The position numbers and the translations under genes were made by a program. From Alphaproteobacteria bacterium (lineage in GTDB: Bacteria > Pseudomonadota > Alphaproteobacteria > Rs-D84 > CACZYB01), in assembly GCA_017938435.1 (NCBI GenBank), contig JAGBBO010000006.1, positions 8,945-72,944 on the forward strand: 64,000 bases of DNA. The letters run 5' to 3'. Below are positions 10,560-58,787 of the stretch, piece by piece (within the stretch, counting starts at the first letter, position 1; every line of letters starts with the position of its first letter). Below the pieces are notes generated by a model. The model saw only the letters and a program-made list of their open reading frames with translations, did no database searches and had not been told where the DNA came from.

Positions 10560-11756
10560 TTACAAATAATCACTTTTTGAACTAATTAACATATCACTAT
10601 GAACATAACAACATTCAATCAAGCCAAATCCTAAAAGTAATGTCATCATAGCAGTTCCACCATAAGATAAAAGTGGAGATGGAACACCAACAACAGGAAG
10701 AAGCCCCATAACCATTGCCGTGTTTATAAAAAAGTAAATAAAAAAGTTTGCAGCCAGTCCCAAAGTCAAAAGTTTTCCAAAATTATTCCTACTTACGAAT
10801 GCGACACGATAACATTGCCATAAAACTGCAATAATAAGTGCAAAAAGACAAAGACAACCAAACATTCCAAATTCTTCGGCAAACATAGTGAAAATAAAAT
10901 CAGTCTGTTTTTCAGGCAAGAAATTTAGATGACTTTGCGATCCATTCAAATATCCTTTTCCCCAAAATCCACCAGAACCTAATGTTATTTTTGATTGTGT
11001 AATATGATAACCGGAACCCATAATATCCTTTTCTGGATTCATAAAAATAATAATCCTTTGTTTTTGATAATCGTGAAGGCCATAACTCCATATAACAGGA
11101 AAAGATAATAAGACAACAAGTAAAACTGCACCAAATTTCCATATTTGGACGCCAGCTATGAAAAATACTATTGCTGATACCAAAACAAGTGTCATTGCAG
11201 TTCCAAGATCAGGTTGTTGAAGCACAAGTCCAACAGGAAGCAATACTAAAAATGCTGGAAATAAAAGGTAATAATTACTCTGAATTTCATTTATACTTAG
11301 TGCTGCAAAATATTTTGCCAATGCAAGGACAAGTGCAATTTTCATAAGTTCAGATGGTTGTATTTTTATAAATCCAATATTAAGCCATCTTTGTGCTCCC
11401 ATACCAACATGGCCAAAAAACATAACACATACCAAAAGGAAAACTGATACACCATAAATCCAATATGCATACTTAACCCAAACTTTTAAATCAATAACTG
11501 CGACAACAAATAAAATACAAAAACCTATTAAAATTTTTGGAATTTGTGAAAGTGCCCATGGTGTCCAACTTCCATAACTTATCAAGCATTTATACGCATC
11601 AGGACATTCCGCTTTTCCTGCACTATATAAAATCATAATACCTACACAACATACACATAGGATAAGAAATACCAATTTCCAATTCAAACATAAAAACTTT
11701 GAAAAGATATTCATTCTATCACTTTTTTTCATAACGGAATAGTCAAGCATTTTCAT
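10560..11756 (-). CDS. rodA: Peptidoglycan glycosyltransferase RodA (SEDS family)
   Basis: FtsW/RodA/SpoVE motifs (...GSGGFWGKGYLNGSQSHLNFLPEKQTDFIF...) in a polytopic membrane protein immediately downstream of mrdA. Confidence 0.85.
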   Translation of the reverse strand: MKMLDYSVMKKSDRMNIFSKFLCLNWKLVFLILCVCCVGIMILYSAGKAECPDAYKCLISYGSWTPWALSQIPKILIGFCILFVVAVIDLKVWVKYAYWIYGVSVFLLVCVMFFGHVGMGAQRWLNIGFIKIQPSELMKIALVLALAKYFAALSINEIQSNYYLLFPAFLVLLPVGLVLQQPDLGTAMTLVLVSAIVFFIAGVQIWKFGAVLLVVLLSFPVIWSYGLHDYQKQRIIIFMNPEKDIMGSGYHITQSKITLGSGGFWGKGYLNGSQSHLNFLPEKQTDFIFTMFAEEFGMFGCLCLFALIIAVLWQCYRVAFVSRNNFGKLLTLGLAANFFIYFFINTAMVMGLLPVVGVPSPLLSYGGTAMMTLLLGFGLIECCYVHSDMLISSKSDYL

Positions 11757-11761
11757 CCTCC

Positions 11762-13591
11762 CTATAAATAAAGTTCCAAAGTTTTCATCATTAAATCACG
11801 AGCAATAGGAGCCGCAGCACCAGAACCAGACATTCCGTGTTCAACCACAACACTTACTGCATATCGTGGATTTTTGTATGGAGCATATCCAACAAACAAA
11901 GCATGGTTTCTATATTTCCATGGCAAATCTTCTTGTCTTATAACACCCCTTGCTCGCTCTTCACGGGTAATTCGTTTAACCTGTGTAGTTCCAGTTTTTC
12001 CAGCCATATGATTCCCCTTAAAATCAAAATATGCAGTTTTTCCAGTTCCATTTGGTTTATTCACAACTGAAAACATACCTTTCTTTATCATATTAAGATG
12101 ATGAGGATCAATATTCATTGATGGAAAAATTATATTTGCATCGTTTTTATTTTTTATAATTCTTGGCTTTACTGCAAAACCACCATTTGCAATTCGTGAA
12201 GTCATTACTGCAAGTTGCAATGGTGTTACCAAAGTATATCCCTGTCCAATAGATGCAGTAATAGTATCACCAGTATACCAAGCCTCACTTTTGTAATTTC
12301 GTTTCCATTCACGACCAGGAACTTGACCTTTTTTTTCATTTGCAAGTTCAATTCCCGTATAATCACCAAGTCCAAATTTGTATGCCATATCTTGGATAAC
12401 ATCCATACTTACCTTTGTTGCCAAAGTATAATAGAAAATATCGCATGAATGAAGAAGTGATTGTTCCAAATTCAAAAATCCATGTCCCGCAGTATTCCAA
12501 CAATGGTATCGGCCATCACCATAATCCATATGTCCAGCACAATTTATTTTCGTATTAGCATTAAGTTTACCATCAGCAAGTGCAGCCAATGCCGTCATCA
12601 TTTTGAATGTTGATCCAGGGGAATAAAGACCTTCAATAGCCTTATTTATAAATGGATGACGCGGATTTGTGAAAAGTTTTTCAAATTCCTTTGATGAAAC
12701 ATCCTCATCCAAAAAAATATTTGGATTATATGATGGAACAGAAATCATCATCAAAATATCACCATTATATATATCCATCACAACGGCACTTGCACTTTCA
12801 TCTTTTATCCTGTTATATGCATATTCCTGTAATCGTTTATCAATAGTAAGATTTATTCTAGTTCCAGGAATCGCCTTTTTCTTTTTATCATCCAAAGTTT
12901 CAATAACACGACCAGTTGCATTTACGACCTGAATACTTTCACCGACTTCACCACGAAGTTCCTTATCCATCAATTTTTCAATACCAGCCTTTCCTGTTTT
13001 AAAGTCAGGTAATTGCAAAATAGGTGATGGATCAGATTTTAATTCTTGTTCGGTCACATCAGAAACATAACCTATAACATGTGCAGCAATTTCATCAAAT
13101 GGATAAAAACGGCGTTTCCCCTCTTCCACATAGACACCTGTAAAATCCAGATTGTTAACCTGAATTTTTGCCATTTCATTCCAACCAAGATTGTTTTTTA
13201 TAAATACTGGGAAAAATGCACGTTTTCTTTTTACATTTTTAAGGACTTTTTCTTTTTCCTTTTCTGTTAATGGAATAAGTTCAGAAATACGATTTAAAAT
13301 TTCATCTACAGTCAAACCTTGTGCTGTGACTTCTTCTGGAATCATTTGAATACCATAACTATTTACATTTACAGCAAGTTCAACACCGAATCTATCAGCG
13401 ATAATGCCACGAGGAGGAGGTAAAAGTTTTATCCTAACACTGTTTTTTTCAGAAAGTTTTTTATATTTTTCACTATCTAAAATTTGAAGTTGGTAAAGAC
13501 GCCCTGCCAAAATAGAAAAAAGGAAAAGTTCGCCTCCTGCAACAAGAAGCGCACGACGATTGAAAACCTTAATCAATTCAGCATCACGCAT
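11762..13591 (-). CDS. mrdA: Penicillin-binding protein 2 (peptidoglycan D,D-transpeptidase MrdA)
   Basis: Transpeptidase motifs (SPGSTFK-like ...YSPGSTFK..., SxN, KTG(T): ...AGKTGTTQ...). Gene order is mreC-mreD-mrdA-rodA. Confidence 0.9.
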   Translation of the reverse strand: MRDAELIKVFNRRALLVAGGELFLFSILAGRLYQLQILDSEKYKKLSEKNSVRIKLLPPPRGIIADRFGVELAVNVNSYGIQMIPEEVTAQGLTVDEILNRISELIPLTEKEKEKVLKNVKRKRAFFPVFIKNNLGWNEMAKIQVNNLDFTGVYVEEGKRRFYPFDEIAAHVIGYVSDVTEQELKSDPSPILQLPDFKTGKAGIEKLMDKELRGEVGESIQVVNATGRVIETLDDKKKKAIPGTRINLTIDKRLQEYAYNRIKDESASAVVMDIYNGDILMMISVPSYNPNIFLDEDVSSKEFEKLFTNPRHPFINKAIEGLYSPGSTFKMMTALAALADGKLNANTKINCAGHMDYGDGRYHCWNTAGHGFLNLEQSLLHSCDIFYYTLATKVSMDVIQDMAYKFGLGDYTGIELANEKKGQVPGREWKRNYKSEAWYTGDTITASIGQGYTLVTPLQLAVMTSRIANGGFAVKPRIIKNKNDANIIFPSMNIDPHHLNMIKKGMFSVVNKPNGTGKTAYFDFKGNHMAGKTGTTQVKRITREERARGVIRQEDLPWKYRNHALFVGYAPYKNPRYAVSVVVEHGMSGSGAAAPIARDLMMKTLELYL

Positions 13592-14111
13592 TGTATTTAC
13601 TTACCACCCTTTCATAAATTTGATTTAATGGCCAATAAAATATTGGATAACAAAGAATTAAAACAGCCCAACTTAACAATATATTAAAGAAATTTATATT
13701 TTCGATAAACATACTGGATATAACAAAATATTTTAATAAAATAAGCACAAGTGTAGAAATGCAAAATGCCAAATATGAAAATGAAAAAGACTCATCAAGT
13801 GGGAAAAATTTTTGGTAAAATACAACAAAATATATGCTTAAGAAAATAAACATATTAAAACCAAATTGAGTCCCATCCAAAAAATCTTGGATAAAACCAA
13901 AAAGCATAACAAAAATAAAATCAAAACATTTTACCTTTTTCATACCCCAAAAAAATATTGGAATAAGGACAAGTGTTGCCTTTACATTATAAACAGGAAT
14001 AAATACAAACGAAAGAACAAGTATAAAAAAACTACTTAACCAAGGAAGTTGCTTGGATAAAAAGGATTTAAGCCATTTATACTTGCTTTTACGAACCAAA
14101 TTGAACCTCAC
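13584..14111 (-). CDS. mreD: Rod shape-determining protein MreD
   Basis: Small polytopic membrane protein between mreC and mrdA, overlapping both. Confidence 0.6.
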   Translation of the reverse strand: MRFNLVRKSKYKWLKSFLSKQLPWLSSFFILVLSFVFIPVYNVKATLVLIPIFFWGMKKVKCFDFIFVMLFGFIQDFLDGTQFGFNMFIFLSIYFVVFYQKFFPLDESFSFSYLAFCISTLVLILLKYFVISSMFIENINFFNILLSWAVLILCYPIFYWPLNQIYERVVSKYNA

Positions 14112-15064
14112 TCTGATATATTAGTTTCTATAAGAAAATTTTTTATCCCATCAGTATGAGATGTTTTGATTACCTTTATATAATCAATGTTTGATTTATG
14201 AACAAAAGGTTGAATAATAATGCCGTTATCTTCACTTATGCTACCAATAATACCAACAGGAATTCCTGCTGGTAAATTACCACCCATTCCAGATGTAACA
14301 ACGACATCACCTATTTGAACAGGTTCCTGATTTTCAAAATGCACAACTTGTGGATAATCAGTATTATCACCAATAAGAAATGCACGCGTTTTTGTTCTTT
14401 CAATTTGAACTGGGATTTTTGAATTTGCATCAGAAATAAGTATCATTCTTGAGTAATTTGTTCCAACAGAATTTATTTGACCAACCAAATATCCATCGAC
14501 AAGAACACCTTGGTATTTTTTAACGCCTTCTTTTGCACCTGCATCAACCAAAAACGAGTGAGTAAAACCAGAACCAGAAGAACCCAAAACTCTTGTAGAA
14601 AGAAGATAATTAACTGCATTTGTTTTAAAGTTATTTAATTTTCGAAGTTCCTGATTTTCGACTTCTATTTGTTTGAAATAGTTAAGTTGTTCCTTTAATT
14701 TTGAAATTTCAGTTCTAAGTTCGTGATTTCTTGCATCTACATCACGAAAATTTTTTACATCAACAATAAACGATCCGACAAGGTATATTGGATAAGAAAT
14801 GACCTTTACAAATGGCGACATAACATCGGCGACAACGCCACTTGTCCTATTTAAAATAACATTGTCCGGTTTTCCAATGAATATAAGGATAAATGAAAAG
14901 ACAATAAACATTATGACAAAAATCTTTCGCACAAGTTTTTTTATCATTTGTATTTTTACTGCTTTTGATGTACTTAACTTATTCAAAATGGCCCCCATAT
15001 TCAATGCCTTATATTTATAGCACTGTAATTTTAAAGAGTCATCATTTTTTTTCACTTTTATCAA
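14108..15064 (-). CDS. mreC: Rod shape-determining protein MreC
   Basis: N-terminal transmembrane segment, coiled-coil segment (ELRTEISKLKEQLNYFKQIEVENQELRKL), and C-terminal beta domain with ...VVTSGMGGNLPAGIPVGII... Confidence 0.8.
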   Translation of the reverse strand: MIKVKKNDDSLKLQCYKYKALNMGAILNKLSTSKAVKIQMIKKLVRKIFVIMFIVFSFILIFIGKPDNVILNRTSGVVADVMSPFVKVISYPIYLVGSFIVDVKNFRDVDARNHELRTEISKLKEQLNYFKQIEVENQELRKLNNFKTNAVNYLLSTRVLGSSGSGFTHSFLVDAGAKEGVKKYQGVLVDGYLVGQINSVGTNYSRMILISDANSKIPVQIERTKTRAFLIGDNTDYPQVVHFENQEPVQIGDVVVTSGMGGNLPAGIPVGIIGSISEDNGIIIQPFVHKSNIDYIKVIKTSHTDGIKNFLIETNISE

Positions 15065-15105: not shown

Positions 15106-16119
15106 TTGGAAAATATGAAAAAAGTAGAACGAAAACATAAAAATATCAAGATTGTGCCAACAAAAAAGCCTAATTTGTTGGCTGGATTTTGGCATTTTCT
15201 TATTCATCAGTTGGATGTAAGGTGGAATTTTTTATCAAGAAAATTTCTTAAATCTGAATTTATCCCTGTTTATATTGCTATACTTATATTCATAATTATT
15301 GCGATTATATCTGGAACTATGGTGTTTTATGATACTAATTCTCACATTACATCATACAGAAAAATGCAACAATTATTCCTTGATTCAGGGTATGATTTGG
15401 AAAAAATAAGAAACAAAGAAATGGATGTTCCTCGAATTTTTATAAAATCTTTGCCTGATGATTTTAATATGATAGAATCGCCAAAGGAAAAAAAGGATTT
15501 ATTTATAAAATTCCTTTTACCTCTTATTTTAAAGAAAAACGAAGAATTAAAAATTAGTCGTGAAAAATTATTGAAAATACAGGAAAAAATTGAACAAAAT
15601 AAAAAATTATCTGATTATGATAAATCTTTTTTAGATTATGTTCAGCAAGAATATAAAACGGAAACTGGTGATATAAAGGATATACTTGTAAAACTTGATG
15701 AAATTTCTGTTTCTATGGCATTGGGGCAAGCTATACAAGAAACAGGATGGGGAGAATCTAGATTTTTAATAAAAGGAAATTCTATATTTGCAGAATGGAC
15801 TTGGGGTGGCGAAGGTATGCTTCCTAGGGCAAGAAAAATTGGACTTATTCATAGAATAAAGACATTCCCTACCCTTTATGATTCAGTAAGTAGTTATGCA
15901 AATAACCTTAATAGAACCAGATATTATGCTGGGTTTAGAAGAATGAGAGCAAGACTTCGTGAACAAGGGAAGCCTTTGTTTGGACGCTGGTTGATGAGCT
16001 CTATGGTTCACTATTCTACGGAAAAAGACAGGTATATTCTTGATGTAAAAAGAATAATTAGGGATAATCATCTTGATGATTTTAATGAGGTGAAATTACA
16101 ACCGGATACTTCACCTTGA
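15106..16119 (+). CDS. Glucosaminidase-domain protein (Bax/FlgJ-like peptidoglycan hydrolase), membrane-anchored
   Basis: ...SVSMALGQAIQETGWGESRFLIKGNSIFAEWTW... matches the mannosyl-glycoprotein endo-beta-N-acetylglucosaminidase (Bax-like) motif. One N-terminal transmembrane segment. Confidence 0.6.
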   Translation: MENMKKVERKHKNIKIVPTKKPNLLAGFWHFLIHQLDVRWNFLSRKFLKSEFIPVYIAILIFIIIAIISGTMVFYDTNSHITSYRKMQQLFLDSGYDLEKIRNKEMDVPRIFIKSLPDDFNMIESPKEKKDLFIKFLLPLILKKNEELKISREKLLKIQEKIEQNKKLSDYDKSFLDYVQQEYKTETGDIKDILVKLDEISVSMALGQAIQETGWGESRFLIKGNSIFAEWTWGGEGMLPRARKIGLIHRIKTFPTLYDSVSSYANNLNRTRYYAGFRRMRARLREQGKPLFGRWLMSSMVHYSTEKDRYILDVKRIIRDNHLDDFNEVKLQPDTSP

Positions 16120-16138
16120 AAAAAAATGGGAGATAAAT

Positions 16139-17860
16139 ATGTTTAAATCACGACAAAATAAAAAGCGAAAATTAGTATCTATTATTGTTCCTGCATACAA
16201 CTGTGCGAAAAGTATATCTAAAACTTTGGACAGTTTGCTTGCACAAACATATAAAAATATTGAAATAGTTTGTATAAATGATGGTTCAAAAGATTCAACA
16301 TTTTCTATCCTTTATGATTACAAAAAAAGTGATAAAAGGGTCAAAATTTATAATAACAAACAAAATATGGGAATTGCATATACAAGAAACCGTGGCGTAG
16401 AACTTGCTCATGGCGACTATATTATGTGGTGTGATGCTGATGATTGGTATGAAAAAAATATGGTCGAAGAAATGGTTATTCCAATGGAAATGGACTATAT
16501 CGACTTTGCGATGTGTGAAACAAATGTCGTGCATGATGAAAATTTAACAGAACGACTTTTGCTTGAAAATTTTAAATTTATTATTCAAATTCCAGACAAT
16601 GAATTACAATATGTATCATACAAAACTTTTTTGGAAATGTCTTGTGTCCTTTGGAACAAAATTTTCAGAAAAAGTATTATTGATAAATATAAAATAAGGT
16701 GTGCCAATACAAAATATGCCGAAGATGAAAATTTCCTTTTTAAATATTTGGCTATGTCGAAACATTATTATTGTGTTCATGAAAAACTTTATAACTATTT
16801 AAGAAATGAAAGCGGAATTACAGGTGGAAGACTTGCTAAAAAAAGTAGCGACACCCTTTCTGCTATTGAAGATGTAGAAGATTTTATACACAAATATAAA
16901 ATAAAAGATTATTACAATATTGCAGAAAATATTTCCAATAATAAAAAGGAATATTATGCAACTTTGTTAGATAAATCTATGAATCTAGAAGTTCTTGGAT
17001 TGAATAGTTTAGTAAAAAATATTGAAACTAGTTTACCAAAAGATTTTCATATATTTTATGCTGTAGATAATAGTTGTATTGAACCTTTTATTGTATCAAT
17101 AACTTCTGTTGTAAATAATGCAAATAATAATGAAGTTTTACATTTTCATATTATATATCGTGAACTTGATAATATAAAAATATTGAAAAATGAACTTTCA
17201 TTTAAAAAACATACTGTGGAATTTATTCAACTTTCGAAAAAACAAATTTCAAGATTAGGCGATTTTAAAAATGATATTTCAACATATAAATATTTCATAC
17301 CTGAAATTGCTAATGAATTGGATAAATGTCTTTATTTGGATTGTGATACAGTGGTTTTATCATCTCTTGATGAGCTATATAAAACAAAACTTTTGAAATC
17401 GTATATGGCAGTGGTTGAATCTGCTATAGATAGTGAGAAAAAATCTGAAAAAGTTAATTTGTTAAATATTCCAAACTATTTTGATTGTGGTGTTATTCTT
17501 ATGAATCTTAAATTGATACGAGAAGACGACCTTGCAAACAAATGGATTGTTGCAAGAAAAAATATTTACAAATATTTAGAAAACCCTGATTGCGATGTAG
17601 TAAATCTTATTGTAAATAACATATTTACTATGTTGAAACCTCAATATAATCTTCAAACTGAAATTTTTGAAAATCCAAAACCATTTTGGTGTTATACAAC
17701 AGAAGAAAAAGAATTTGCAAAAAATAATCCTGTAATTATTCATTATTCCGGAAAAAATAAACCTTGGAATTCTGTTTCATCACATTTATGGAAGGATATT
17801 TATTTTAAATATTTAAAATTGGCACCGAAAAAACACTTATGCTATTGGAAAAATGTATAA
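16139..17860 (+). CDS. Bifunctional glycosyltransferase: N-terminal GT2 (GT-A, SpsA-like) plus C-terminal GT8 (LgtC/RfaJ-like)
   Basis: GT2: SIIVPAYN...CINDGSKD...YIMWCDADD. GT8: LDCDTVV (DxD), YFDCGVILMNL, DCDVVN, IHYSGKNKPW. Paralog of 32315-34162. Confidence 0.8.
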   Translation: MFKSRQNKKRKLVSIIVPAYNCAKSISKTLDSLLAQTYKNIEIVCINDGSKDSTFSILYDYKKSDKRVKIYNNKQNMGIAYTRNRGVELAHGDYIMWCDADDWYEKNMVEEMVIPMEMDYIDFAMCETNVVHDENLTERLLLENFKFIIQIPDNELQYVSYKTFLEMSCVLWNKIFRKSIIDKYKIRCANTKYAEDENFLFKYLAMSKHYYCVHEKLYNYLRNESGITGGRLAKKSSDTLSAIEDVEDFIHKYKIKDYYNIAENISNNKKEYYATLLDKSMNLEVLGLNSLVKNIETSLPKDFHIFYAVDNSCIEPFIVSITSVVNNANNNEVLHFHIIYRELDNIKILKNELSFKKHTVEFIQLSKKQISRLGDFKNDISTYKYFIPEIANELDKCLYLDCDTVVLSSLDELYKTKLLKSYMAVVESAIDSEKKSEKVNLLNIPNYFDCGVILMNLKLIREDDLANKWIVARKNIYKYLENPDCDVVNLIVNNIFTMLKPQYNLQTEIFENPKPFWCYTTEEKEFAKNNPVIIHYSGKNKPWNSVSSHLWKDIYFKYLKLAPKKHLCYWKNV

Positions 17861-17906: not shown

Positions 17907-18518
17907 TTATTCAATACAACAATTAACTGCTTTTTTAACAGCTTCTTTTAATTTTGAAATTTTAGTTGTTTTCTTTTCTTCTTTTGAAATAGATTTCGAA
18001 GATTTTACATCTTGGTTTGCAATTTTAATATTTGAAAGATGTTCTTCGATTTCCTTAACATCTATACCTGCATCCTTTACCCATTCAACATCCTTTAAAT
18101 TTATTGCATTCGTATTTAAACCCCAGAAAAGGCAATAAAGTTCGTATGCTTTATCAAATAAATCGTATGCCTCTTTTGTATTACCCATAGATTGTTGTTT
18201 GGTTCCAACTTCCATCAAACGATATGCAGCACCAAGCAAGTGTTTTGAAATACACCAAACTTCACCTTCGTATGCTTTTATCATTTTTTGCATCAATGTT
18301 TTACGCATATCGCGAATCTCTTCAATTAAATCATAGAACGAAGTCTTTCCAGTTTTTGCACCTGAAAAAATCAGATGTTCTTCGATAGAAATTAAGTTCA
18401 TAATTGCAATAGATAAATCCTGATCGGATGATAAATCCTTTGGATTAACTTTTTTCATATTATCAATTTTTTCAACAAATGCTTTTAAACTTTTTTCTCT
18501 TTTATTATCCTTTTTCAT
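17907..18518 (-). CDS. Hypothetical protein, 203 aa, with a Lys-rich C-terminal tail ending ...NCCIE
   Basis: ORF 12 nt downstream of an unknown membrane-protein gene, in an apparent operon with the Mur-ligase fusion gene. Confidence 0.4.
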   Translation of the reverse strand: MKKDNKREKSLKAFVEKIDNMKKVNPKDLSSDQDLSIAIMNLISIEEHLIFSGAKTGKTSFYDLIEEIRDMRKTLMQKMIKAYEGEVWCISKHLLGAAYRLMEVGTKQQSMGNTKEAYDLFDKAYELYCLFWGLNTNAINLKDVEWVKDAGIDVKEIEEHLSNIKIANQDVKSSKSISKEEKKTTKISKLKEAVKKAVNCCIE

Positions 18519-18530
18519 TACTCTTTCCTC

Positions 18531-19016
18531 CTATGGTAAATAATTAAAAATTATTGATGTTACAAGTAAAAATACAACAGCCATTACAACCTTTTCAAAT
18601 GGAAAATGTGCATGACCTCCATTTGCGGTTTTCATTTTTTGGTAAATAAACTGAGAAAGCCAAAATGCAAAAGCACCAGAAATCATACTTATCAAAAAGG
18701 CATCAATACCAAAAAATGTATCAAATTTATACTGAACAAAATTATACATAACTGGAACAAGACATAATGTCATCAATCCCCAAAAAAGTTTATAAAACTT
18801 AAAGGTCCATTTTTTATACTCAACAAATTTAATTGTAAAGTAATATGTCATCAAAAGAAGTCCACCAATCCAAACGCCAGTTGCATTATCTGATATTCCC
18901 AAAGCCCTTGAGATACCAAGGAATGCACCCATAGCAACAGTGCAAACTGCACATGCCGGATTTGCCCTTGCAACAGATGGAATTAACATAGATATCAAAA
19001 ATAATAATTTAACCAT
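18531..19016 (-). CDS. Hypothetical integral membrane protein, 161 aa, 4-5 transmembrane segments
   Basis: Hydrophobic segments throughout. Immediately downstream of the Mur-ligase fusion on the same strand. Confidence 0.4.
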   Translation of the reverse strand: MVKLLFLISMLIPSVARANPACAVCTVAMGAFLGISRALGISDNATGVWIGGLLLMTYYFTIKFVEYKKWTFKFYKLFWGLMTLCLVPVMYNFVQYKFDTFFGIDAFLISMISGAFAFWLSQFIYQKMKTANGGHAHFPFEKVVMAVVFLLVTSIIFNYLP

Positions 19017-19082: not shown

Positions 19083-22034
19083 TTAATACCCTTCCTTTAT
19101 CAAATCAAGAATTGTTTCCTGATCAGTATATGGAATATTTTTTGTGCCAAATGTGACATAGTCTTCATGCCCTTTTCCAGCAACCAAAATAACATCGTCA
19201 GGTTTTGAAATTTCCATTGCCTTTTTAATAGCATCACGACGACCAGTTTTTACCTCTATCGCATTAGGGCAATGTTTCAAAATTTCATCCCTTATTTTTT
19301 GTGGATCTTCACATCTTGGCGAATCATCAGTTAATATAGGAATATCGGCATATTTATTTGCAATAGTGCCAAGTTCAAAACGACGAGTATTTGCTTCGTA
19401 AATATCACCACAAGTGCTAAATACATTTATAATTCGACCATTTTCCTTTAACATAGGGCGTATAGTTTTAAGAGTATTTTCCAAAGCTTCTCCCTTATAC
19501 GCAAAATCGACATAGATACTTGCCCCTGATTTCGTTTTTCCCATATATTCAAGACGACCAAGTGCATTTCTAACATTTCCAAGGAGTGGAATTACCCTTT
19601 CCCAATCAGGTGTTGTTGCCGCAACCATACCCAATGCACACATAAGATTGTTAAGTTGGAATGAACCAAGAATTTTTAAATCCAAATGGTATTTTTTACC
19701 AAACAATTCCACATCTGCAATTTGTCCTTCCAAACTGGTTTGTTGAGATAAAATTTTAAGTTCAGTTCCGTTTCGTCCGTATGAAAATACCCTGACGCCT
19801 CGATTATCACAAATTTGTTTTAAATAATCGTATTCTGGAACATCTGCATTTAAAACAGCAGTCCCTGTAATATCAAGATTTTCACGGAAAAGTTTTGATT
19901 TAGATTTTAAATAAGAATCATAACTTCCATAAAATTCAAGATGATCAGTTCCAAGGTTTGAAAAACCTGCGGCTGAAATTTTTATATTTTCCATACGAAG
20001 TTGATCAAGTCCATGGCTTGATAATTCAATCGCACCATGTTCAACACCTTTTTCCTTAAAATATTTCAAAAATTTGTATGCTTCACCATTACCAGGTGTT
20101 GTATGATCGGCATCACTAAACTTTACAATTTCCTTTTTACTGTAAACATTTTCCACAATCATACCTATTGTGCCGATACTTATTGTTGGGAATGAAAGCA
20201 ATCCCCAAATTTGTCTTGTAAAATCGACAATAGATGATTTTCCACTGGTTCCAGTAATTGCACAAATAACTTCGGGTTGCTTTTTATCATAGAAAGTAAA
20301 TACCAAATCAGCCAAAGCCTTTCTTGGATTTTCGGTTCTAACTATGAAAATATTTTTTTCCTTTATCAAAGACAAAGTTTTTTCATCAAATTCGTATGAT
20401 GGTTCAACGACAATAGCTTTTGCTCCTTTTTGAATAGCATCATATGAATAATTAGCACCATTTTGTGCAAATCCTTTTATACCAACAAAAATACTTCCAT
20501 CGACAATAGTTTTGGAATCACATGAAACAAGATGAATTGGTGTATCGGTCGCACCATTACATTCGTATCCTGCTTCGGAAAGAAGTTTATTTAGCGGTTT
20601 TGAAGGTAAGGCAAGTTTGTTTCTAATAAACTCTTTATCCTTTTCATACATAGTTCCACAAATTATAATTGAATCCCAATCGCGTGATGTATCAATTATT
20701 TCATTGATAGCTTCGTAACGATTTGGAATTACCCTAGCCTTTGGGCAATATTTAAGCAATGTTGAACGAATATTTTCAGGATTTTCAGTTCTTGGATTAT
20801 CATCTACAATTACAACTGTATCTGCATACTCATTTAAAACTTTACCCATTTCAATACGACGAATTTCTGGTCTATCTCCACTGCAACCAGCAATGCAAAT
20901 AAGATTATGTTTTACATGCGGTCTGAACTCGGTCAAAAGTTTTTTAAGCCCGTCACCATTATGTCCGAAATCAACAAATATTTTTGCCCCATTAGGTGTA
21001 GTTGCAACATATTCAATACGACCTTTTTCATTTTTTATATCAGAAACTTTTGAAAGTATTTTTTCCCAATCTTTATAAGATGAAATAAACATTCCAAGTG
21101 CACACATAAAATTAAATACTTGGAACTTGGTAACAAGGTTTAATGTCATATCATAAGTTTTTCCAAATATTGATAATTTTACTTGTTGTTTATCATCGAC
21201 TATTTCATATTTTTCAAGTCTGATATCGGATTGTTGATTTTCACCGTATGTTATAACTTTTATTCCCCGAGATTCACAAACATCAACAACTTTTTGTCCT
21301 TTTGCATCATCTATGTTTATTGTTGCAGTGCCATCGGAATCAAGAAGTTCAGAAAATAGACGAAGTTTTGCATTAAAGTATTCTTCGACCGTTTTATGAT
21401 AATCCAAATGATCGTTTGAAATATTTGTAAAACCAGCTGATTTTATTTTTACACTATCGGCACGATGTTGTTCAATACCATGACTGGAAGTTTCTATGGC
21501 TACATTTGTAACACCAGAAGAAGCAAGATTATCTAAATTTTTATGCAAATCAATAGCATCTGGTGTTGTTAAAGTTTTTCCACCTACACCATCAGGAGTA
21601 TGAATACCAACTGTTCCAATAGATGCAGATTTAAGATCAATAAATTCCCACATCTGACGAATAAAGTTTACAACTGAACTTTTTCCATTTGTTCCTGTTA
21701 CTGCACAAATAAATTCTGGTTGATTAGGGTAAAAATTACTTGCAATAATAGATTCAACTAAACGAATATTATCTACAAATATAAATGGAATATGTTGATA
21801 TTTTTTAATATCTATATAATCTTTGTTTTCTTTATTAGTAAGGATAGCAACAGCACCCAAATTTATTGCATCATCAATGAAATCAGCACCATTAACTTTT
21901 GTTCCTTTTACTGCAATAAAAAGACTACCTTTATTAACTTTTGATGAATTATTTTCAACAGAGGTTATATCTAAATCCAAATTTTTATTTTCTATTTCAT
22001 AAGAAATATTATTTAATAATTCTGAAAGTAACAT
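19083..22034 (-). CDS. murE: Tandem Mur-ligase fusion protein, 983 aa: MurE-like N-half (DNPR motif) and MurE/MurF-like C-half (DSPR motif)
   Basis: Two complete Mur ligase modules, each with a P-loop (TGTNGKSS / TGTSGKSS), an SSHG motif (ETSSHGIEQHR / ELSSHGLDQLR), a DHLD/DHLE motif and a C-terminal DDNPRTENP / DDSPRCEDP motif. Confidence 0.8.
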   Translation of the reverse strand: MLLSELLNNISYEIENKNLDLDITSVENNSSKVNKGSLFIAVKGTKVNGADFIDDAINLGAVAILTNKENKDYIDIKKYQHIPFIFVDNIRLVESIIASNFYPNQPEFICAVTGTNGKSSVVNFIRQMWEFIDLKSASIGTVGIHTPDGVGGKTLTTPDAIDLHKNLDNLASSGVTNVAIETSSHGIEQHRADSVKIKSAGFTNISNDHLDYHKTVEEYFNAKLRLFSELLDSDGTATINIDDAKGQKVVDVCESRGIKVITYGENQQSDIRLEKYEIVDDKQQVKLSIFGKTYDMTLNLVTKFQVFNFMCALGMFISSYKDWEKILSKVSDIKNEKGRIEYVATTPNGAKIFVDFGHNGDGLKKLLTEFRPHVKHNLICIAGCSGDRPEIRRIEMGKVLNEYADTVVIVDDNPRTENPENIRSTLLKYCPKARVIPNRYEAINEIIDTSRDWDSIIICGTMYEKDKEFIRNKLALPSKPLNKLLSEAGYECNGATDTPIHLVSCDSKTIVDGSIFVGIKGFAQNGANYSYDAIQKGAKAIVVEPSYEFDEKTLSLIKEKNIFIVRTENPRKALADLVFTFYDKKQPEVICAITGTSGKSSIVDFTRQIWGLLSFPTISIGTIGMIVENVYSKKEIVKFSDADHTTPGNGEAYKFLKYFKEKGVEHGAIELSSHGLDQLRMENIKISAAGFSNLGTDHLEFYGSYDSYLKSKSKLFRENLDITGTAVLNADVPEYDYLKQICDNRGVRVFSYGRNGTELKILSQQTSLEGQIADVELFGKKYHLDLKILGSFQLNNLMCALGMVAATTPDWERVIPLLGNVRNALGRLEYMGKTKSGASIYVDFAYKGEALENTLKTIRPMLKENGRIINVFSTCGDIYEANTRRFELGTIANKYADIPILTDDSPRCEDPQKIRDEILKHCPNAIEVKTGRRDAIKKAMEISKPDDVILVAGKGHEDYVTFGTKNIPYTDQETILDLIKEGY

Positions 22035-22160
22035 TTTCTTTCCTTTTAAATTTAATATTTAGATATTTTATAAGAAAAAATGTCAGTAATCAATAGAAAC
22101 TTTTACTTGTATATTTACAAGAAAAAAGTTACAATTTACAAAGACTAAGGGGATTGTAAA

Positions 22161-23339
22161 ATGGAAAAATTTGAAAATTATGATGTAATTCGTGTTTTTG
22201 ATGAAAAGGCATTGGCTAAAAATATTGAAAATACTATTAAAAAAAATAAAACAAAACTTGGTGTTGTGGTAAAGGCAAATTCGTATGGAATTGGAATTGA
22301 ACGGACTTTACCTGTTTTTGAAAAACATAAAATTTCTGATTTTTTTACGCAAGATATTATTGAGGCAAAAAAAATCAAACGCTTGCTTGAAAATAAAAAT
22401 GCAAATATTTATGTTTTTGCAGGTGTGCAAGATGGACAAGTCGAAGATTTTATCAAAAATAAAATTATCCCTTTGTGTGTAAATCTTTCCCAGATAAAAT
22501 ATTTTAATGAAAAAGCAAAGGGACAAAAATCAAAACCAAAAATTGGAATACATTTTGATACAGGAATGAACCGAACTGGACTTTCCCTATCCGAAGTAGA
22601 GGAGCTTTCCAAAAATTTTGAAAAAATAACATCAAATCTTGATGTCGTTTTATATGTAAGTCATCTTCACAGTTCGTATGAAAAAAACAACAAAGCAAAT
22701 AATAAACAACTGGAAAAATTTACAAAAATTATATCTAAACTTCCAAAAAGAATATGCAGTCTTTCCGCAACTGGTGGAAGTTTTAGATTGCCTGAAAAAT
22801 ATCATTTTGATTTATTAAGGGTTGGATATGGTATTTATGGAGTCCTTAGGGAAATGGATGCTGTTGTTTCCGTGTATGCAAAAATCTTACAAATACGCGA
22901 TGTTGCAAAAGGCGAAAGTATCGGATATTTTGGTGGTTATAAAGCTGAAAAAAATATGAAAATTGCAATTCTTAATATTGGATACAAAGACGGATATTCA
23001 AGAAGTTTAAGTCATACAAATAAGTGGAAAGATAAACTTCGTGCCAAACTTAAAAGTGGGGCTAATTTTGCGACAAGTTATGCTGTTATTGATGGAAAAT
23101 ACAAATGTTATGTTGTTGGAATTATTTCTATGAATAATATTATGATTGATGTTTCAAATGTTCCAGAAAAAGTTTTAGCAAAGGTTAAATTTGCTGAAAT
23201 AGTTGGTAAAAATGCAAACCTTATGGATTTCAGAGAAGCAAACGGATTTATTCCATGCGATTTGTTAACATCGCTACTTTTACCAAATCCAAATGCTGTG
23301 GATATGAATATGGATGAGTTTAAAAAACTTAAAATATAA
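22161..23339 (+). CDS. alr: Alanine racemase
   Basis: PLP-lysine motif VVVKANSYGIG near the N-terminus. 392 aa. Confidence 0.8.
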   Translation: MEKFENYDVIRVFDEKALAKNIENTIKKNKTKLGVVVKANSYGIGIERTLPVFEKHKISDFFTQDIIEAKKIKRLLENKNANIYVFAGVQDGQVEDFIKNKIIPLCVNLSQIKYFNEKAKGQKSKPKIGIHFDTGMNRTGLSLSEVEELSKNFEKITSNLDVVLYVSHLHSSYEKNNKANNKQLEKFTKIISKLPKRICSLSATGGSFRLPEKYHFDLLRVGYGIYGVLREMDAVVSVYAKILQIRDVAKGESIGYFGGYKAEKNMKIAILNIGYKDGYSRSLSHTNKWKDKLRAKLKSGANFATSYAVIDGKYKCYVVGIISMNNIMIDVSNVPEKVLAKVKFAEIVGKNANLMDFREANGFIPCDLLTSLLLPNPNAVDMNMDEFKKLKI

Positions 23340-52923: not shown

Positions 52924-53985
52924 TTATTTCTTACTTAAATCTGTAATCATATTTGGTATATCATCAGCTTCGAAACCATAATGTGAAAGCCAGCGAGTAT
53001 CAGTTTCAAAACATTTTCTCATATCTGGAATACCGTATTTTAACATAGTCAATCTTTCGATACCCATACCGAATGCGAATCCTTGGTATTCATCAGGATC
53101 AACACCAACAGCCTTTAACACATTTGGATGAACCATACCACAACCCAAAATTTCAAGCCAACGATTACCGTTTGCACCAATCTTTAATTCACCGTTTTGT
53201 AAACTACAACGAATATCCATTTCCGCAGATGGTTCGGTAAATGGGAAATAGCTTGGTCTGAATTGTGTTGGAACATCATCTACTTCGAAAAATGCTTTTA
53301 AAAAGTCAATCAAACAACCTTTAAGATGACTCATATTGATATTTTTATCGACATACAAACCTTCGATTTGGTGGAACATAGGTGTATGAGTTGCATCCCA
53401 ATCACTTCTGTAAACACGACCCATTGTAATAACCTTAACAGGCACACCGGTTCTTTCCATTTCACGAATTTGAACAGATGAAGTTTGTGTTCTTAATAAA
53501 TTTCCGCCTTCGACAAAGAATGTATCTTGCATTGAACGAGCAGGATGAAATGGAGGAACATTAAGTGCAGTAAAATTATGAAAATCATCTTCTATATCAG
53601 GATCATTGGCAGATACCAAACGAAAACCAAGTGAACCAAAAATTTGCAATAATTCTTCACGAACTTGTGTAAGTGGGTGGATATGCCCCTTGCTATCTTC
53701 TGCTTTATTCAAAGAGACATCAATTTTATCACTTTCCAATTTTTTATTTATTTCAGAAAGTTCAAGGATTGATTTTTTTGTATCCATAGCAGAAATTATT
53801 TCTGTTTTAATTTGGTTAAGTTCAGCACCCCTAACCTTTCGTTCATCAGGTGTCATTTTTCCAAGTTCACGAAGGGCAAGCGATAAAGAACCAGATTTTC
53901 CCAAAACCTCGACATTCAAACTTTCCAATTCAGATGTAGAAGTTGCCTTTTCAATTTTTTCTAATATTTCATTTTTATCTATCAT
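52924..53985 (-). CDS. pheS: Phenylalanine--tRNA ligase alpha subunit
   Basis: Class II aaRS motifs (...FHPARSMQDTFF..., ...RSDWDATHTPMFHQIEG..., ...GFAFGMGIERLTMLKYGI...). Confidence 0.9.
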   Translation of the reverse strand: MIDKNEILEKIEKATSTSELESLNVEVLGKSGSLSLALRELGKMTPDERKVRGAELNQIKTEIISAMDTKKSILELSEINKKLESDKIDVSLNKAEDSKGHIHPLTQVREELLQIFGSLGFRLVSANDPDIEDDFHNFTALNVPPFHPARSMQDTFFVEGGNLLRTQTSSVQIREMERTGVPVKVITMGRVYRSDWDATHTPMFHQIEGLYVDKNINMSHLKGCLIDFLKAFFEVDDVPTQFRPSYFPFTEPSAEMDIRCSLQNGELKIGANGNRWLEILGCGMVHPNVLKAVGVDPDEYQGFAFGMGIERLTMLKYGIPDMRKCFETDTRWLSHYGFEADDIPNMITDLSKK

Positions 53986-55117
53986 TTGTATTATCCAATA
54001 TTATATTATTGTTATTATTTTGTTTGTTTAAAATCTTATCAGAAGCATTTTCAAATTCCAATGTTTTTATTATATTTTCAGAATTTATTATACTACATTT
54101 TCTACCACAAATTTCTTTTTCTAATCCTGTTTTTATTGCAATATCAAAGAATTTTTCAGGTGTAATTTCTGGAAACGAGTTTTTTGCAACAGCATAAATA
54201 CCAGCAAGATATGGAACAGCCCAACTCATACCTCCATCACTATAATATGTATAATCTTCATTTCCTATTGGAGATGCCACAGTTACCCTATCTTGTGGAA
54301 CAATAAGTGTATTTTTTGTATCAGAATTTTTATTGTTCGAAGATAAATTTCTTTTTTGAATAAAAAGTGGTTCTTTGTATTCCTGTGGATTATCTAAATT
54401 ATTGTTGATATTTCTATCCCCACCTATAAAGCTAAAGTTATGAGTTTTTTCAAGAGATGTCGTAATAACAAAAATATCCGATTCTTGTGCCTTTTGCATT
54501 ATATCTAACAATCTTTTTTCTTGTTCTTTATTTTCCGTTGGAATAGCATAGGAAATTGAAAGCGTATGAATTTTATTTTCTGGATGTTCTTCATTATATT
54601 TAATAACTCTATCTATCGCATTTATATAATTGTCAGTATTTGTATCAGAAACGCAAAAATATACAAGTTTTGCATCTGGTGCGACACCAATATTTTTACC
54701 ACATAAAATAGAAGAAACAGCAATACCGTGTTGCGATGCCTCATTTGACCAAGATTTATGCTCATCAACCTCTTCATAATGGATAAGTTTGTCTTTTATT
54801 TCATTATGTGTAGTAAGTAATGGTTGATCAATAATTGCAACGGTTGCACCTTTACCAGTATATCCCTTTTTATGCAAAGCATTTATTCCAAGACCTCGAT
54901 TTTTTGCAACTTCTAATCTTTCAGTAAATTTAGAAGCAATAGAAGATAGAAATTTTGTTTTTGAATTAAATAAAAATTGTTCTAAAAATTCGGATGAAAG
55001 TAATTTATCCCAATCATAATTATTTTGCGAAATGTCAAGGCTACGAAAATCATATGCACTACTTCTTTCTGAAAGAGGCTTTACATAATTTAAAGGTTGT
55101 ATTTTTGTATCTATCAT
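53975..55117 (-). CDS. Subtilisin-like (S8) serine peptidase homolog, no signal peptide
   Basis: Catalytic-triad-like motifs in S8 order: Asp (GATVAIIDQP), His (HGIAVSSI), Ser (GGMSWAVPYLAG). Inserted between rplT and pheS, overlapping the pheS start by 11 nt. Confidence 0.55.
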   Translation of the reverse strand: MIDTKIQPLNYVKPLSERSSAYDFRSLDISQNNYDWDKLLSSEFLEQFLFNSKTKFLSSIASKFTERLEVAKNRGLGINALHKKGYTGKGATVAIIDQPLLTTHNEIKDKLIHYEEVDEHKSWSNEASQHGIAVSSILCGKNIGVAPDAKLVYFCVSDTNTDNYINAIDRVIKYNEEHPENKIHTLSISYAIPTENKEQEKRLLDIMQKAQESDIFVITTSLEKTHNFSFIGGDRNINNNLDNPQEYKEPLFIQKRNLSSNNKNSDTKNTLIVPQDRVTVASPIGNEDYTYYSDGGMSWAVPYLAGIYAVAKNSFPEITPEKFFDIAIKTGLEKEICGRKCSIINSENIIKTLEFENASDKILNKQNNNNNIILDNTNDR

Positions 55118-56080: not shown

Positions 56081-57454
56081 TTATCTGACATCTTCATCCT
56101 GTTTTAAACGCCCAATTACCGGAGTCTTTCTCCCCTTAATGGCAAGTTTTTTCGAACCTTCATCAAACATTGACTTTTTATGCATAACTTTGCTGAAAGA
56201 AAGATTTTCTTTTTCTTCAAGTTCTTTAAAGTTAATGTTATTTAAATTGTTATTATAATTAACAGCCTTTTTCTTTAAGTTTAATATTTCATCTTTATAC
56301 ATAGTCAAAATTTTTTCTATAGAATTTCTATTTGATATTATTTTTAACAACATATCTTCAGAAAAAGTTAAAGGAACATATTTATCATATTTCCATTTTA
56401 ATGTCTTAGAATATTCTGAATTATATTTTTTCCAACAATTATCATTAAACTTTTTATCATATTCATCCTTGTAGGATATAAATTTATTTACAGTATCATA
56501 TACATACTCTTCTTTTAAATCAAAGTTTTTCATTATTTCTTTTCTTGCTTCAGGATAATTTTCATAAACATATGTATAAAGCCCAATATTTTCAGGATAT
56601 TCAATTTTTTTGATTTCATACATTTTATCACTTATATTAGAGAAAAGAATATTACTAAGTTCAGTTAAAGTTTGATTATAGTCTTTGTTTAAATATTTAT
56701 TATTATAAACATTTGGAAATTTAATATCTACATAACTAAAACTCTGGTCATAATAACCTTTAATTCTATCTTGATAAGAATCTGCAGATAAGTATCCTTC
56801 TTTAATTAAAGGTCTTTCTTTTAATTTTTCATGCAAATCATAATATGTATTAATAAATTCTTTAGAAACCCCAATATCCATTGTTTTAAATTGAAAATTT
56901 TTAAGGAAAAATTGTTCTGGAGGAACATTCTTAGCTTCATTAAACAAGATAACATTTCTTTTCATATTTTCTAAACTATGTTTATTTATTTTGCTAATTT
57001 GTTTTTCTTCACGTAATTTTTTAAGTGTTTCAGCATCATGTCTTAAATCCACAAAAAGTTCAGAACATTTTTTTATCAAAGGCAAGATAGTATCTTTATA
57101 GTATTTTTTATCTTCAGTTATTGTAGGAGTAAGTTTTTTCTTAATATTTTTATCTACATAATCCAAATGCTTTTTAGCTGTTATATTAAAATCAATCGCA
57201 TTTTTAATTTTAAATCCATATGGAATAGCATCTTTTAGTTTAGAAGATAAATCTGCTAAAGGATAAATAGTATTTGGTACCCGTAGACTATTATATCCAC
57301 TTCTTTCTGCTAATCTATCCATTTCATTTAAATGTCTTCTTAAAGTTTTTTTAACTTCAATACCAAGTTCTTTTCTAACACTGTTAGGCATTGGAGTATT
57401 ATCTGCTTCTCTTATTCTTCTCTCAATTTCTTTTTGAATATCCTTTTTATCCAT
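56081..57454 (-). CDS. Hypothetical Lys/Tyr-rich protein (457 aa from MDKKD...) with a basic C-terminal tail
   Basis: Ribosome-binding site AAGGAG 7 nt upstream of ATG at 57454. Own terminator. No recognisable domain. C-terminus ...KKLAIKGRKTPVIGRLKQDEDVR. Confidence 0.5.
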   Translation of the reverse strand: MDKKDIQKEIERRIREADNTPMPNSVRKELGIEVKKTLRRHLNEMDRLAERSGYNSLRVPNTIYPLADLSSKLKDAIPYGFKIKNAIDFNITAKKHLDYVDKNIKKKLTPTITEDKKYYKDTILPLIKKCSELFVDLRHDAETLKKLREEKQISKINKHSLENMKRNVILFNEAKNVPPEQFFLKNFQFKTMDIGVSKEFINTYYDLHEKLKERPLIKEGYLSADSYQDRIKGYYDQSFSYVDIKFPNVYNNKYLNKDYNQTLTELSNILFSNISDKMYEIKKIEYPENIGLYTYVYENYPEARKEIMKNFDLKEEYVYDTVNKFISYKDEYDKKFNDNCWKKYNSEYSKTLKWKYDKYVPLTFSEDMLLKIISNRNSIEKILTMYKDEILNLKKKAVNYNNNLNNINFKELEEKENLSFSKVMHKKSMFDEGSKKLAIKGRKTPVIGRLKQDEDVR

Positions 57455-57697
57455 TTTTTTCTCCTTTTTATAAAAAATAAACAAAACCACAAAAGTGACT
57501 GGAAGCTAGAAACTATGTAAGATAGTGCGTATTATTTTGCTGAAAGATACTTGCAGCATTATTCTACTGCCTTCCAGCCAAAACGCCAGAAAGCGTGTAA
57601 ATTTTTTGTCCTTACACTATGGACACTTACATAGGCTTCTAGACCCAATATCTATAATATCATATTTTCAAATAAAATAAAAGATTTTTTTCAAACT

Positions 57698-58787
57698 TTA
57701 TTTCTTTATATTATTATAAAGTAGCGTTGCAGAAAGGAACTCATCAATATCACCGTCAAGGGTAGATGTAATATTTGATGTTTCAAAATTTGTTCGTAAA
57801 TCTTTTATCATTTGATATGGTTGAAGGACATAGGAACGAATTTGTGCACCCCAACCTATTTCAGATTTTGATTCGTTGATTTTTGCCTCCTCCTCGGCAC
57901 GCTTTTCAAGTTCAAGATTATATAAGCGAGATTTAAGCATACTCATGGCAACATCTTTGTTTTTAAATTGCGACCTTTCGTTTTGGCATTGAACGACAAT
58001 CCCTGTTGGAATGTGTGTAATACGAACAGCACTATCGGTTTTATTGACATGTTGACCGCCGGCACCACTTGCACGGTAAGTATCAATTCGTAAATCTTTT
58101 TCTTCTATATGAATTTCAATTTTGTCATCAATAACCGGATAGACCCAGACAGAGGCAAAACTTGTGTGACGACGAGCATTACTATCAAATGGTGAAATAC
58201 GAACCAAGCGATGAATACCACTTTCACCCTTAAGCCAACCATAAACATTTATACCAGTAATTTGTAATGTCGCAGATTTTATACCTGCCTCATCCCCAGC
58301 ATGCTCCTCAATCAAATCAACCTTATACCCATGGCGTTCACCCCAGCGGATATACATACGAAGAAGCATTTGTGCCCAATCGCATGCCTCGGTTCCACCA
58401 GCACCACTGTGAATTTCAAGGTAGGCAGGAAGATTATCAGCCTCCCCGTTCAACATAAGATTTAATTTTTCCTTTTCAAGACTTGATACAAAATTTTCAA
58501 GTTGAATTTCAGTATCGGAAACCAAATCCGAATCATTTTCAAGTTTTGCTAAATCCAAAAGTTCATGAAGATTTTCGTATTCTTTTTTCTTTGTTTCATA
58601 AAGATTGATTTTACGCTCCACCTCTGCCTTTTGCGACATAAGTTTTTGGGCAAAATCAGGATTATCCCACAAATTAGGAGATGAAGTTTTTTCCTCTAAT
58701 TCCTTTAATTCATTGGTTAAAGAGGAGATGTCAAAGACACCCCCTAATTTCTGATAATAAACTTTCTATTTTTCCAAAATCAACCAT
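57698..58787 (-). CDS. prfB: Peptide chain release factor 2, expressed via a programmed +1 frameshift: complement(join(57698..58732,58734..58787))
   Basis: Frame 0 is MVDFGKIESLLSEIRGCL, ending at the CUU UGA C shift site (58736-58730, minus strand). An AGGGGG Shine-Dalgarno-like element lies 3 nt upstream. The +1 frame continues DISSLTNELKELEEKTSSPNLWDNPDFAQ... into the RF2 body, including SPF and GGQ (SGAGGQHVNKT). Confidence 0.85.

Follow-up and report, generated by a model that had tools for sequence, protein, structure and literature searches.

The DNA analyzed here (the window) is a stretch of 64,000 nucleotides, positions 8,945 to 72,944 of contig JAGBBO010000006.1, from a metagenome-assembled genome (MAG) named "Alphaproteobacteria bacterium" (GCA_017938435.1). 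On its minus strand, at 19083..22034, there is an ATG-to-stop open reading frame (ORF) of 983 amino acids (aa), the subject of this work, which we call murE-murE. The deposited record of its product, MBP3615373.1, is annotated as plain MurE. Pfam, in turn, finds in it two consecutive sets of Mur_ligase N, M, and C domains, and an earlier note on this DNA, made from the letters alone, was right to describe a single protein made of two complete Mur-ligase modules. Divergently adjacent to murE-murE is alr, a gene of the alanine-racemase family (22161..23339, plus strand; Pfam Ala_racemase_N and C).

Mur ligases carry out some of the most conserved and best understood steps of cell wall synthesis, and they are antibiotic targets. 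The MurE step sets the residue that is used for cross-linking and that is seen by innate-immune recognition (DAP-type or Lys-type).

The murE-murE gene is a real, conserved, and previously undescribed architecture. Its N module (aa 1-492, 20559..22034) is a MurE with a canonical pocket, and its C module (aa 493-983, 19083..20558) is a MurE paralogue in which the catalytic residues are intact and the pocket for the incoming amino acid has been remodelled.

Two MurE modules in one protein

The curated cut-offs of the relevant hidden Markov models (HMMs) are 257.3 bits for TIGR01085 (MurE), 288.6 bits for TIGR01143 (MurF), and 1023 bits for NF008896 (the bifunctional MurE/MurF, PRK11929). On the MurE model, the halves reach 364.9 bits (N) and 339.6 bits (C), both above the cut-off, and on the MurF model they score 96.8 and 89.1 bits, both below it. 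Because a typical alphaproteobacterial MurE scores 518-587 bits on TIGR01085, the two modules are divergent members of the MurE family. The bifunctional model gives 706 bits, under its cut-off, and both halves align to the same part of it, positions 29-496 or so, which is the MurE part. A sequence search of the PDB returns MurE chains as the best hits for each half. An AlphaFold2 model built from the clade alignment (predicted local distance difference test, pLDDT, 89.9; predicted template modelling score, pTM, 0.82) agrees with this assignment: by Foldseek, MurE structures reach template modelling (TM) scores of 0.82-0.87, and MurF structures 0.69-0.73.

The two halves are 35% identical to each other across 466 residues (E = 1e-101), which indicates a true internal duplication and not a chance resemblance. 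The next-best database matches to the fusion, at about 30% identity, are of another kind. All ten that we tested (916-967 aa) are genuine MurE-MurF fusions, with C halves that score 450-530 bits on the MurF model, and they align end to end to NF008896. The earlier note considered both halves MurE-like, and it left open whether this was a murE-murF fusion with an unusually MurE-like MurF half or a tandem MurE duplication, to be settled by scoring each half on the two models. The C half, at 340 bits for MurE and 89 for MurF, together with the real MurF halves of the ten outgroup fusions, leads us to reject the first option. The scores, the identity between halves, and the tree described below all favor the second.

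Neither an artefact joining two genes nor a frameshift can account for the ORF. The identical 983-aa protein is called on 17 independent contigs, and about 25 further sequence clusters contain full-length homologues (960-984 aa). In all, the full murE-murE architecture is found in about 28 clusters, at 54-99% identity. Taken as species-representative genomes, the carriers are MAGs recovered from the rumen, from human (Hadza) and other animal guts, and from termite guts, under the names "Alphaproteobacteria bacterium" or "Rickettsiales bacterium".

We define the MurE-MurE clade by a length of about 960-984 aa, two MurE modules, and alr divergently upstream, and by motifs: DDSPR, GD-x-YE, and DFAYKG in the C module, and DDNPR and GT[ML]YE in the N module. 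The window protein has all of these features, which are invariant in alignment A1, and it is 99% identical to clade member P0001. In a neighbor-joining (NJ) tree, the N modules are monophyletic in 100/100 bootstraps and so are the C modules (100/100). The two groups are sisters in 93/100 bootstraps, and their internal branching orders are congruent. N and C modules also share derived states at three otherwise conserved MurE positions (Y357F, P361G, and K393R). The simplest history is a single duplication plus fusion in the ancestor of the clade. Purifying selection acts on both modules: dN/dS is 0.10-0.19 in the N module and 0.06-0.15 in the C module.

Full-text literature searches for MurE-MurE fusions, murE duplication, and MurE paralogues found no papers. 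A survey of natural Mur chimeras lists MurE-MurF, MurC-Ddl, MurC-MurB, MurG-MurC, MurD-FtsW, and MraY-MurG, with no MurE-MurE among them (PMC10214165).

Residues kept and replaced in the two modules

The motifs that the earlier note had pointed out in each half (a P-loop, SSHG, DHLD or DHLE, and DDNPRTENP or DDSPRCEDP) are all there, with the expected spacing. In the N module, the P-loop is TGTNGKSS (aa 113-120, 21675..21698), followed by ETSSHG and DHLDYH. The SGDRPE loop (20865..20882) holds the equivalent of R389 and binds the L-centre carboxylate of meso-diaminopimelate (meso-DAP), and DDNPR (20790..20804, within DDNPRTENP, aa 411-419) binds the D-centre (roles from PMC3829189 and PMC9434261). 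In the C module, the P-loop is TGTSGKSS (aa 594-601, 20232..20255), and next come ELSSHG, DHLEFYG (19926..19946), DFAYKG (19491..19508), the CGDIYE loop (19395..19412), and DDSPR (19314..19328, within DDSPRCEDP, aa 903-911). One comparison in the note has to be corrected. It set the DDSYNANP of MurF against the DNPR of MurE, and these are not homologous positions: the DDSYNAN of MurF aligns with the VDYAHTP of MurE, a stretch that lies upstream of the GGDRD loop and reads DFGHNG in the N module and DFAYKG in the C module. The C half lacks the MurF C-domain motifs DDSYNAN and GDMxELG, and it carries DFAYKG and CGD[VIN]YE..RRxELG in their stead, with MurE-type spacing. Its resemblance to GDMxELG is only partial, a hydrophobic residue after GD.

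To map the residues, we aligned 19 clade members with E. coli MurE, the numbering of which we use throughout. In MurE, R389 contacts the L-centre carboxylate of meso-DAP; D413, N414, G464, and E468 contact the D-centre; and R416 contacts both (PMC9434261, PMC3829189). The machinery for ATP and Mg is kept in both modules of all 19 members: K119 of the P-loop, E182, H210, the carbamylated lysine K224, and D356.

The N module has all six DAP-binding residues (R389, D413, N414, R416, G464, and E468) as well as H359, conserved across the 19 members. Its C-terminal tail is degenerate. The K465-G466-H467 of GKGHE has become T-[M/L]-Y, giving GT[ML]YE in which G464 and E468 remain, and the final strand and helix are missing.

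The C module keeps four of the six DAP-binding residues, namely D413, R416, G464, and, as part of an intact KGHE, E468. Position 389 is never Arg in any of the 19 sequences; it is V, I, or N, and it comes with an insertion of two residues. Also in 19 of 19, there are the changes H359Y, T360K, H214Y, and N414S, and ahead of the TTP motif there is an insertion of eight residues. An exhaustive HMMER search with the C module over 1.84 billion representatives, of which the best 150 hits were listed, tells how unusual these changes are. Among the 129 standalone-length hits in that list, which we take as canonical MurE, R389, H359, H214, and N414 are 98-100% conserved, and H214 is invariant. The motif scan covered the 38 best non-clade hits of the list, and in those 38 the C-module signature is absent. 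Nearly all of them carry the canonical GG[DNE]RD, DDNPR, and GKGHE. Nor is there a standalone C-module-like enzyme among these 38, all but a few of which are canonical MurE. The C-module signature thus looks specific to this clade, judging from the sequences ranked closest to it.

The genes around murE-murE and the whereabouts of MurF

The conserved partner of the fusion is the divergent alr, about which the earlier note is silent; it adjoins murE-murE in 14 of 14 clade loci. The two genes of the window are separated by 126 bp (22035..22160) with promoter-like hexamers on both strands, which are matches to the consensus only and not enriched over shuffled sequence. With 169.6 bits on the TIGR00492 model, the alr product barely clears the cut-off, which is 168. 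It also has an appreciable similarity to the VanT serine racemase (122 bits), and the substrate of the racemase may not be settled.

On the other side of murE-murE, and on the same strand, there are genes for a 161-aa hydrophobic protein (18531..19016) with three hydrophobic segments, and for a 203-aa protein (17907..18518). Neither protein has a match in Pfam or NCBIfam. The 161-aa protein shows a CAVC motif right behind a signal-like N terminus. The earlier note placed both genes downstream in one operon with the fusion. The only terminator-like hairpin on the minus strand here comes after the 203-aa gene (17887-17867), but the 66 bp that separate murE-murE from the 161-aa gene also contain a strong promoter-like match. 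In the window, the two genes may be co-transcribed with murE-murE. A conserved operon is ruled out, as among the clade loci the two genes are confined to L003 and L008, the two closest relatives with downstream sequence.

More generally, the region from 10.5 to 26 kb is a concentration of envelope genes: rodA, PBP2, mreD, mreC, a glucosaminidase, a glycosyltransferase, murE-murE, alr, ctpA, and an M23 peptidase. A 337-aa protein with a Bax/glucosaminidase domain and a 573-aa protein with GT2 and GT8 glycosyltransferase domains are encoded in the interval that separates mreC from the 203-aa gene (15106-17860, plus strand). The window, at about 30% GC, encodes mreC, mreD, PBP2, and rodA (10560-15064), rlpA, the M23 peptidase, ctpA, ccrM, and polA, and the host is a peptidoglycan-making alphaproteobacterium. 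Towards the other end, a ddl gene (63082-64000, plus strand) begins and is cut by the window boundary; being truncated, it is missing from the list of ORFs. It shares 71% identity with relative L091's Ddl, falls slightly under the curated Ddl cut-offs, and has some VanG-like similarity. The 877-aa ORF upstream of it (60441-63074) is probably alaS, an analogy drawn from L091, where ddl is preceded by a tRNA-synt_2c gene of 877 aa as well. Three minus-strand ORFs, of 380 aa (53975-55117), 469 aa (56081-57490), and 490 aa (58787-60259), have no NCBIfam match at E <= 1e-10.

Where are the other Mur genes? Using tblastn with E. coli and clade queries, we find none of MurF, MraY, MurD, MurC, MurG, or MurB in the window outside the fusion ORF. 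The note's observation that no murF, mraY, or murD accompanies the gene is thus correct for the window; for murF it does not extend to the genome, as the same MAG has a MurF-like protein, MBP3615440.1. This protein is 67 accession numbers away from the fusion, MBP3615373.1, and since both records list the same longest contig of 174,705 bp, the two genes are very likely on one contig. In one relative, mraY-murD-ftsW-murG-murC-murB is found upstream of alr and murE-murE.

We read the surroundings of the division and cell wall (dcw) cluster from the clade MurD proteins in four genomes (L090, L091, L092, and L096), which include the window's own species. All four have the order mraZ-rsmH-ftsL-ftsI-mraY-murD-ftsW-murG, then murC-murB where the locus extends that far. 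The gap between ftsI and mraY is only about 65 bp, which leads us to conclude that both murE and murF are gone from their usual slot. In three of the four genomes, again including the window's species, an alpha/beta-hydrolase gene followed by a MurF-like gene of 529-530 aa lies 2.5-5 kb from the dcw cluster. The pair does not appear within 10 kb of the cluster in L092, the fourth and more distant genome.

Residues 176-515 or so of the MurF-like protein, its central and C-terminal domains, match TIGR01143 with 201-219 bits (the cut-off is 289), and it has the motifs TGSFGKTS, DDAFNSN, and GMVELG. In its first 170 residues, three to five hydrophobic segments replace the UDP-binding N domain of MurF. 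Genes of this family are at L096:10001-11590 (the window's species), L091:1372-2964 (minus), L090:1419-3008 (minus), L094:10001-11647, and L095:10001-11548. The family (515-550 aa) extends far beyond the MurE-MurE clade: its full-length relatives, at 36-99% identity, number at least 120, and it is widespread in uncultured Alphaproteobacteria and other Pseudomonadota. The hydrolase gene always precedes it and ddl often adjoins it, a linkage to ddl that is seen also in distant genomes. In one distant genome, the MurF-like gene is inside a dcw cluster with a single canonical murE (C terminus ...GHEQG...) and no murF before mraY. In L094, a distant genome with a single murE and a MurF-like gene, a 150-aa ORF with no family assignment (L094:21072-21524, minus strand) occupies the slot between murE and mraY, the usual place of murF.

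Given this linkage to ddl, and the one case of a place in the dcw cluster next to a single murE, the ancestor most likely had a working MurF already. Most economically, these lineages would use the membrane-anchored MurF-like protein as their MurF and would have had it before the murE duplication took place. A MurF with a membrane anchor would be unusual in its own right. The argument that a genome without murF must use the C half as its MurF is weakened by the presence of this gene near the dcw clusters of relatives and in the window's own MAG.

What the C module may do, and how it compares with known systems

Our preferred explanation goes as follows. The clade consists of low-GC Alphaproteobacteria associated with the gut, and in its ancestor murE would have been duplicated in tandem and the copies fused head to tail. 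The fused gene would have left the dcw cluster for its present place back to back with alr. The N module, with its complete pocket, is predicted to be the housekeeping MurE that adds meso-DAP. The C module would be an active ATP-dependent Mur ligase acting on a UDP-MurNAc-peptide, as suggested by its conserved P-loop, Mg ligands, and carbamylated Lys, and by the acceptor side, where a MurE-type N domain and the TTP, SSHG, and R192 contacts are kept. Its nucleophile would be different from meso-DAP in the normal orientation: what has been lost is the holder of the carboxylate on the side of the reacting amine (R389) along with H214, H359, and N414, and what has been kept is the Asp/Glu/Arg/Gly set that holds the distal amine and carboxylate. 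Candidate reactions are the joining of a diamino acid via its side-chain amine, or the placing of another amine or residue on the stem peptide, either of which would yield a precursor that is alternative or bears an additional substituent. D-Ala-D-Ala addition would most likely fall to the separate membrane-anchored MurF-like protein and not to the C module. We regard it as an even question whether the C module is indeed a neofunctionalised ligase that adds a different residue.

Several observations weigh on the other side. The change of R389 to a hydrophobic residue resembles the M of the GDMxELG of MurF, and that of H214 to an aromatic one resembles the F of its HLEGFG. The MurF-like protein scores below the curated MurF cut-off and has no UDP-binding N domain, and its role as MurF is inferred. 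As for the history of the fusion, the tree is by NJ only, and the sister placement of the two modules may be inflated by a common AT-rich composition and by long branches.

It could also be that both modules serve the ordinary MurE step, the C module being either a second meso-DAP ligase with other kinetics or regulation, or a non-catalytic partner that stabilizes, channels, or regulates. Redundancy is compatible with the persistence of D413, R416, G464, and E468 in the C module, and with the fact that Ser can replace Asn as a hydrogen-bond partner. MurE-like proteins that are not enzymes are known: plant PAP11 is among the PDB hits of both halves, and the moss MurE2 has been reported to be apparently not a ligase (PMC9434261). 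The N module, having lost its C-terminal tail, may lean structurally on the C module. However, one would not expect an inert copy to keep the P-loop, E182, H210, K224, and D356 invariant, or to show a dN/dS as low as or lower than that of the canonical module in a clade that goes down to 54% identity. Moreover, R389, H359, and H214, at sites almost never altered in canonical MurE, are replaced uniformly in the C module, which indicates directional change and not drift. Against redundancy also counts that N407A, the equivalent of a mutation at N414, inactivates the MurE of S. aureus (PMC3829189). We consider this explanation unlikely.

Alternatively, the C module could be the one that now performs the MurF reaction, in which D-Ala-D-Ala, or else a single D-Ala, would be joined to UDP-MurNAc-tripeptide. 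The fusion would then be a functional MurE-MurF made from two MurE bodies, with the MurF-like protein doing something else. This would make sense of the canonical murF missing from the ftsI-mraY slot in four clade genomes, and of the constant presence of alr, the supplier of D-Ala (a family of MurF-Alr fusions, NF008897, is known). The Arg that binds a single amino acid's alpha-carboxylate is gone from the C module, which carries MurF-type residues at positions 389 and 214 and has its eight-residue insertion near the acceptor-binding TTP loop; and the separate MurF-like protein is without a UDP-binding domain. Yet the MurF-like family is older than the MurE-MurE clade and much more widely distributed, and it is linked to ddl and once found in a dcw cluster with a single canonical MurE. 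The C module retains D413 and E468, whose binding partner is a distal amine, a group missing from D-Ala-D-Ala, and its N domain is of the MurE type. There is also the case of P0254 (L097:2369-5308), a separate 979-aa MurE-MurE fusion, in a cluster that reads ftsI, murE-murE, a 452-aa Mur ligase (presumed MurF), mraY, and murD. A second MurE module and a separate MurF can thus coexist, with this third Mur ligase directly ahead of mraY. All considered, a C module working as MurF seems improbable to us.

Finally, it is hardly credible that the protein is an ordinary PRK11929-type MurE-MurF fusion with a MurE-looking MurF half, or a joining artefact of two genes: related Alphaproteobacteria MAGs commonly carry MurE-MurF fusions of 930-970 aa, which come next among the matches to the fusion, but the 706 of 1023 bits on NF008896 with both halves on its MurE part, the 89 bits of the C half on the MurF model, the true MurF halves (450-530 bits) of the ten outgroup fusions, and the recurrence of the frame on 17 contigs and in about 28 clusters all say otherwise.

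Returning to a neofunctionalised C module, we can go one step further, with less confidence. The C module may have an undescribed Mur-ligase activity that makes a non-classical stem peptide at the stage of the nucleotide precursor, working together with a membrane-anchored MurF, so that the whole clade would have an uncatalogued peptidoglycan chemotype. We lean somewhat against this full version. In one variant, a diamino acid could be attached "upside-down" by its side-chain amine; in another, an extra residue could go on a second free carboxylate of the UDP-MurNAc-peptide. That peptidoglycan synthesis may be remodelled in these bacteria is a reasonable inference. The fusion and the membrane-anchored MurF-like protein together suggest that late cytoplasmic steps of the pathway have been re-engineered.

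The published list of Mur chimeras has no entry for a fusion like this one, conserved and under selection, in which a canonical MurE is joined to one whose pocket has been rebuilt. Because the gene is labelled plain MurE, surveys of fusions that rely on annotation could miss or misfile it. As a gene that can be cloned, it offers a concrete candidate for a new chemistry of the stem peptide in a gut lineage without cultured members, and if the C module does add a new residue, the case becomes considerably more interesting.

How does this protein compare with what is known? Like canonical MurE, both modules have the three-domain fold, the P-loop, the Mg ligands, and the carbamylated Lys, and the N module has the complete meso-DAP pocket. 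Unlike in canonical MurE, one chain holds two modules, the C module is without R389, H359, H214, and N414, the N module is without the K465-G466-H467 of GKGHE and the C-terminal tail, and the gene is outside the dcw cluster, adjoining alr. With the MurE-MurF chimeras (PRK11929/NF008896) the fusion shares a head-to-tail arrangement, with no linker, of two Mur ligases in about 950-980 aa. The MurE-MurF of Bordetella pertussis (8F5D) is even its best Foldseek hit (E = 5e-49), but the global superposition is poor (root-mean-square deviation 16.9 A, TM 0.39-0.48), and the second module of the fusion is a MurE, not a MurF.

The reuse of a Mur-ligase body to load a different group on a peptidoglycan-type carboxylate has precedents in neofunctionalised paralogues such as the MurT of MurT/GatD, Mpl, MurD2, and the C-terminal domain of cyanophycin synthetase. 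We know of none of these that is derived from MurE with a full MurE N domain, or that is fused to a canonical MurE. In our HMM comparison, the halves of the fusion show no sequence-level membership in the MurT, Mpl, MurD2, or cyanophycin synthetase groups.

The closest parallels are other murE duplications. P0254 has the pockets SDNPR and SDNAE in its two modules. In gut Bacilli MAGs, tandem murE-murE genes lie directly upstream of mraY (L016:4703-7189, L017:9989-12748, and L019:9998-12691), one with a DDPH or DDLH pocket and the other with DNPR. In the tree, the P0254 and Bacilli duplications arose separately from the clade of the window. They are alike in being independent duplications of murE, fused or adjacent, in which one copy has the canonical DNPR pocket. 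They differ in the variant copy. Theirs changes the Arg of the fourth motif (DNAE, DDPH, or DDLH), in a manner similar to Lys-type enzymes, and keeps R389 and H359, whereas the variant copy of the window keeps the fourth-motif Arg and loses R389, H359, H214, and N414.

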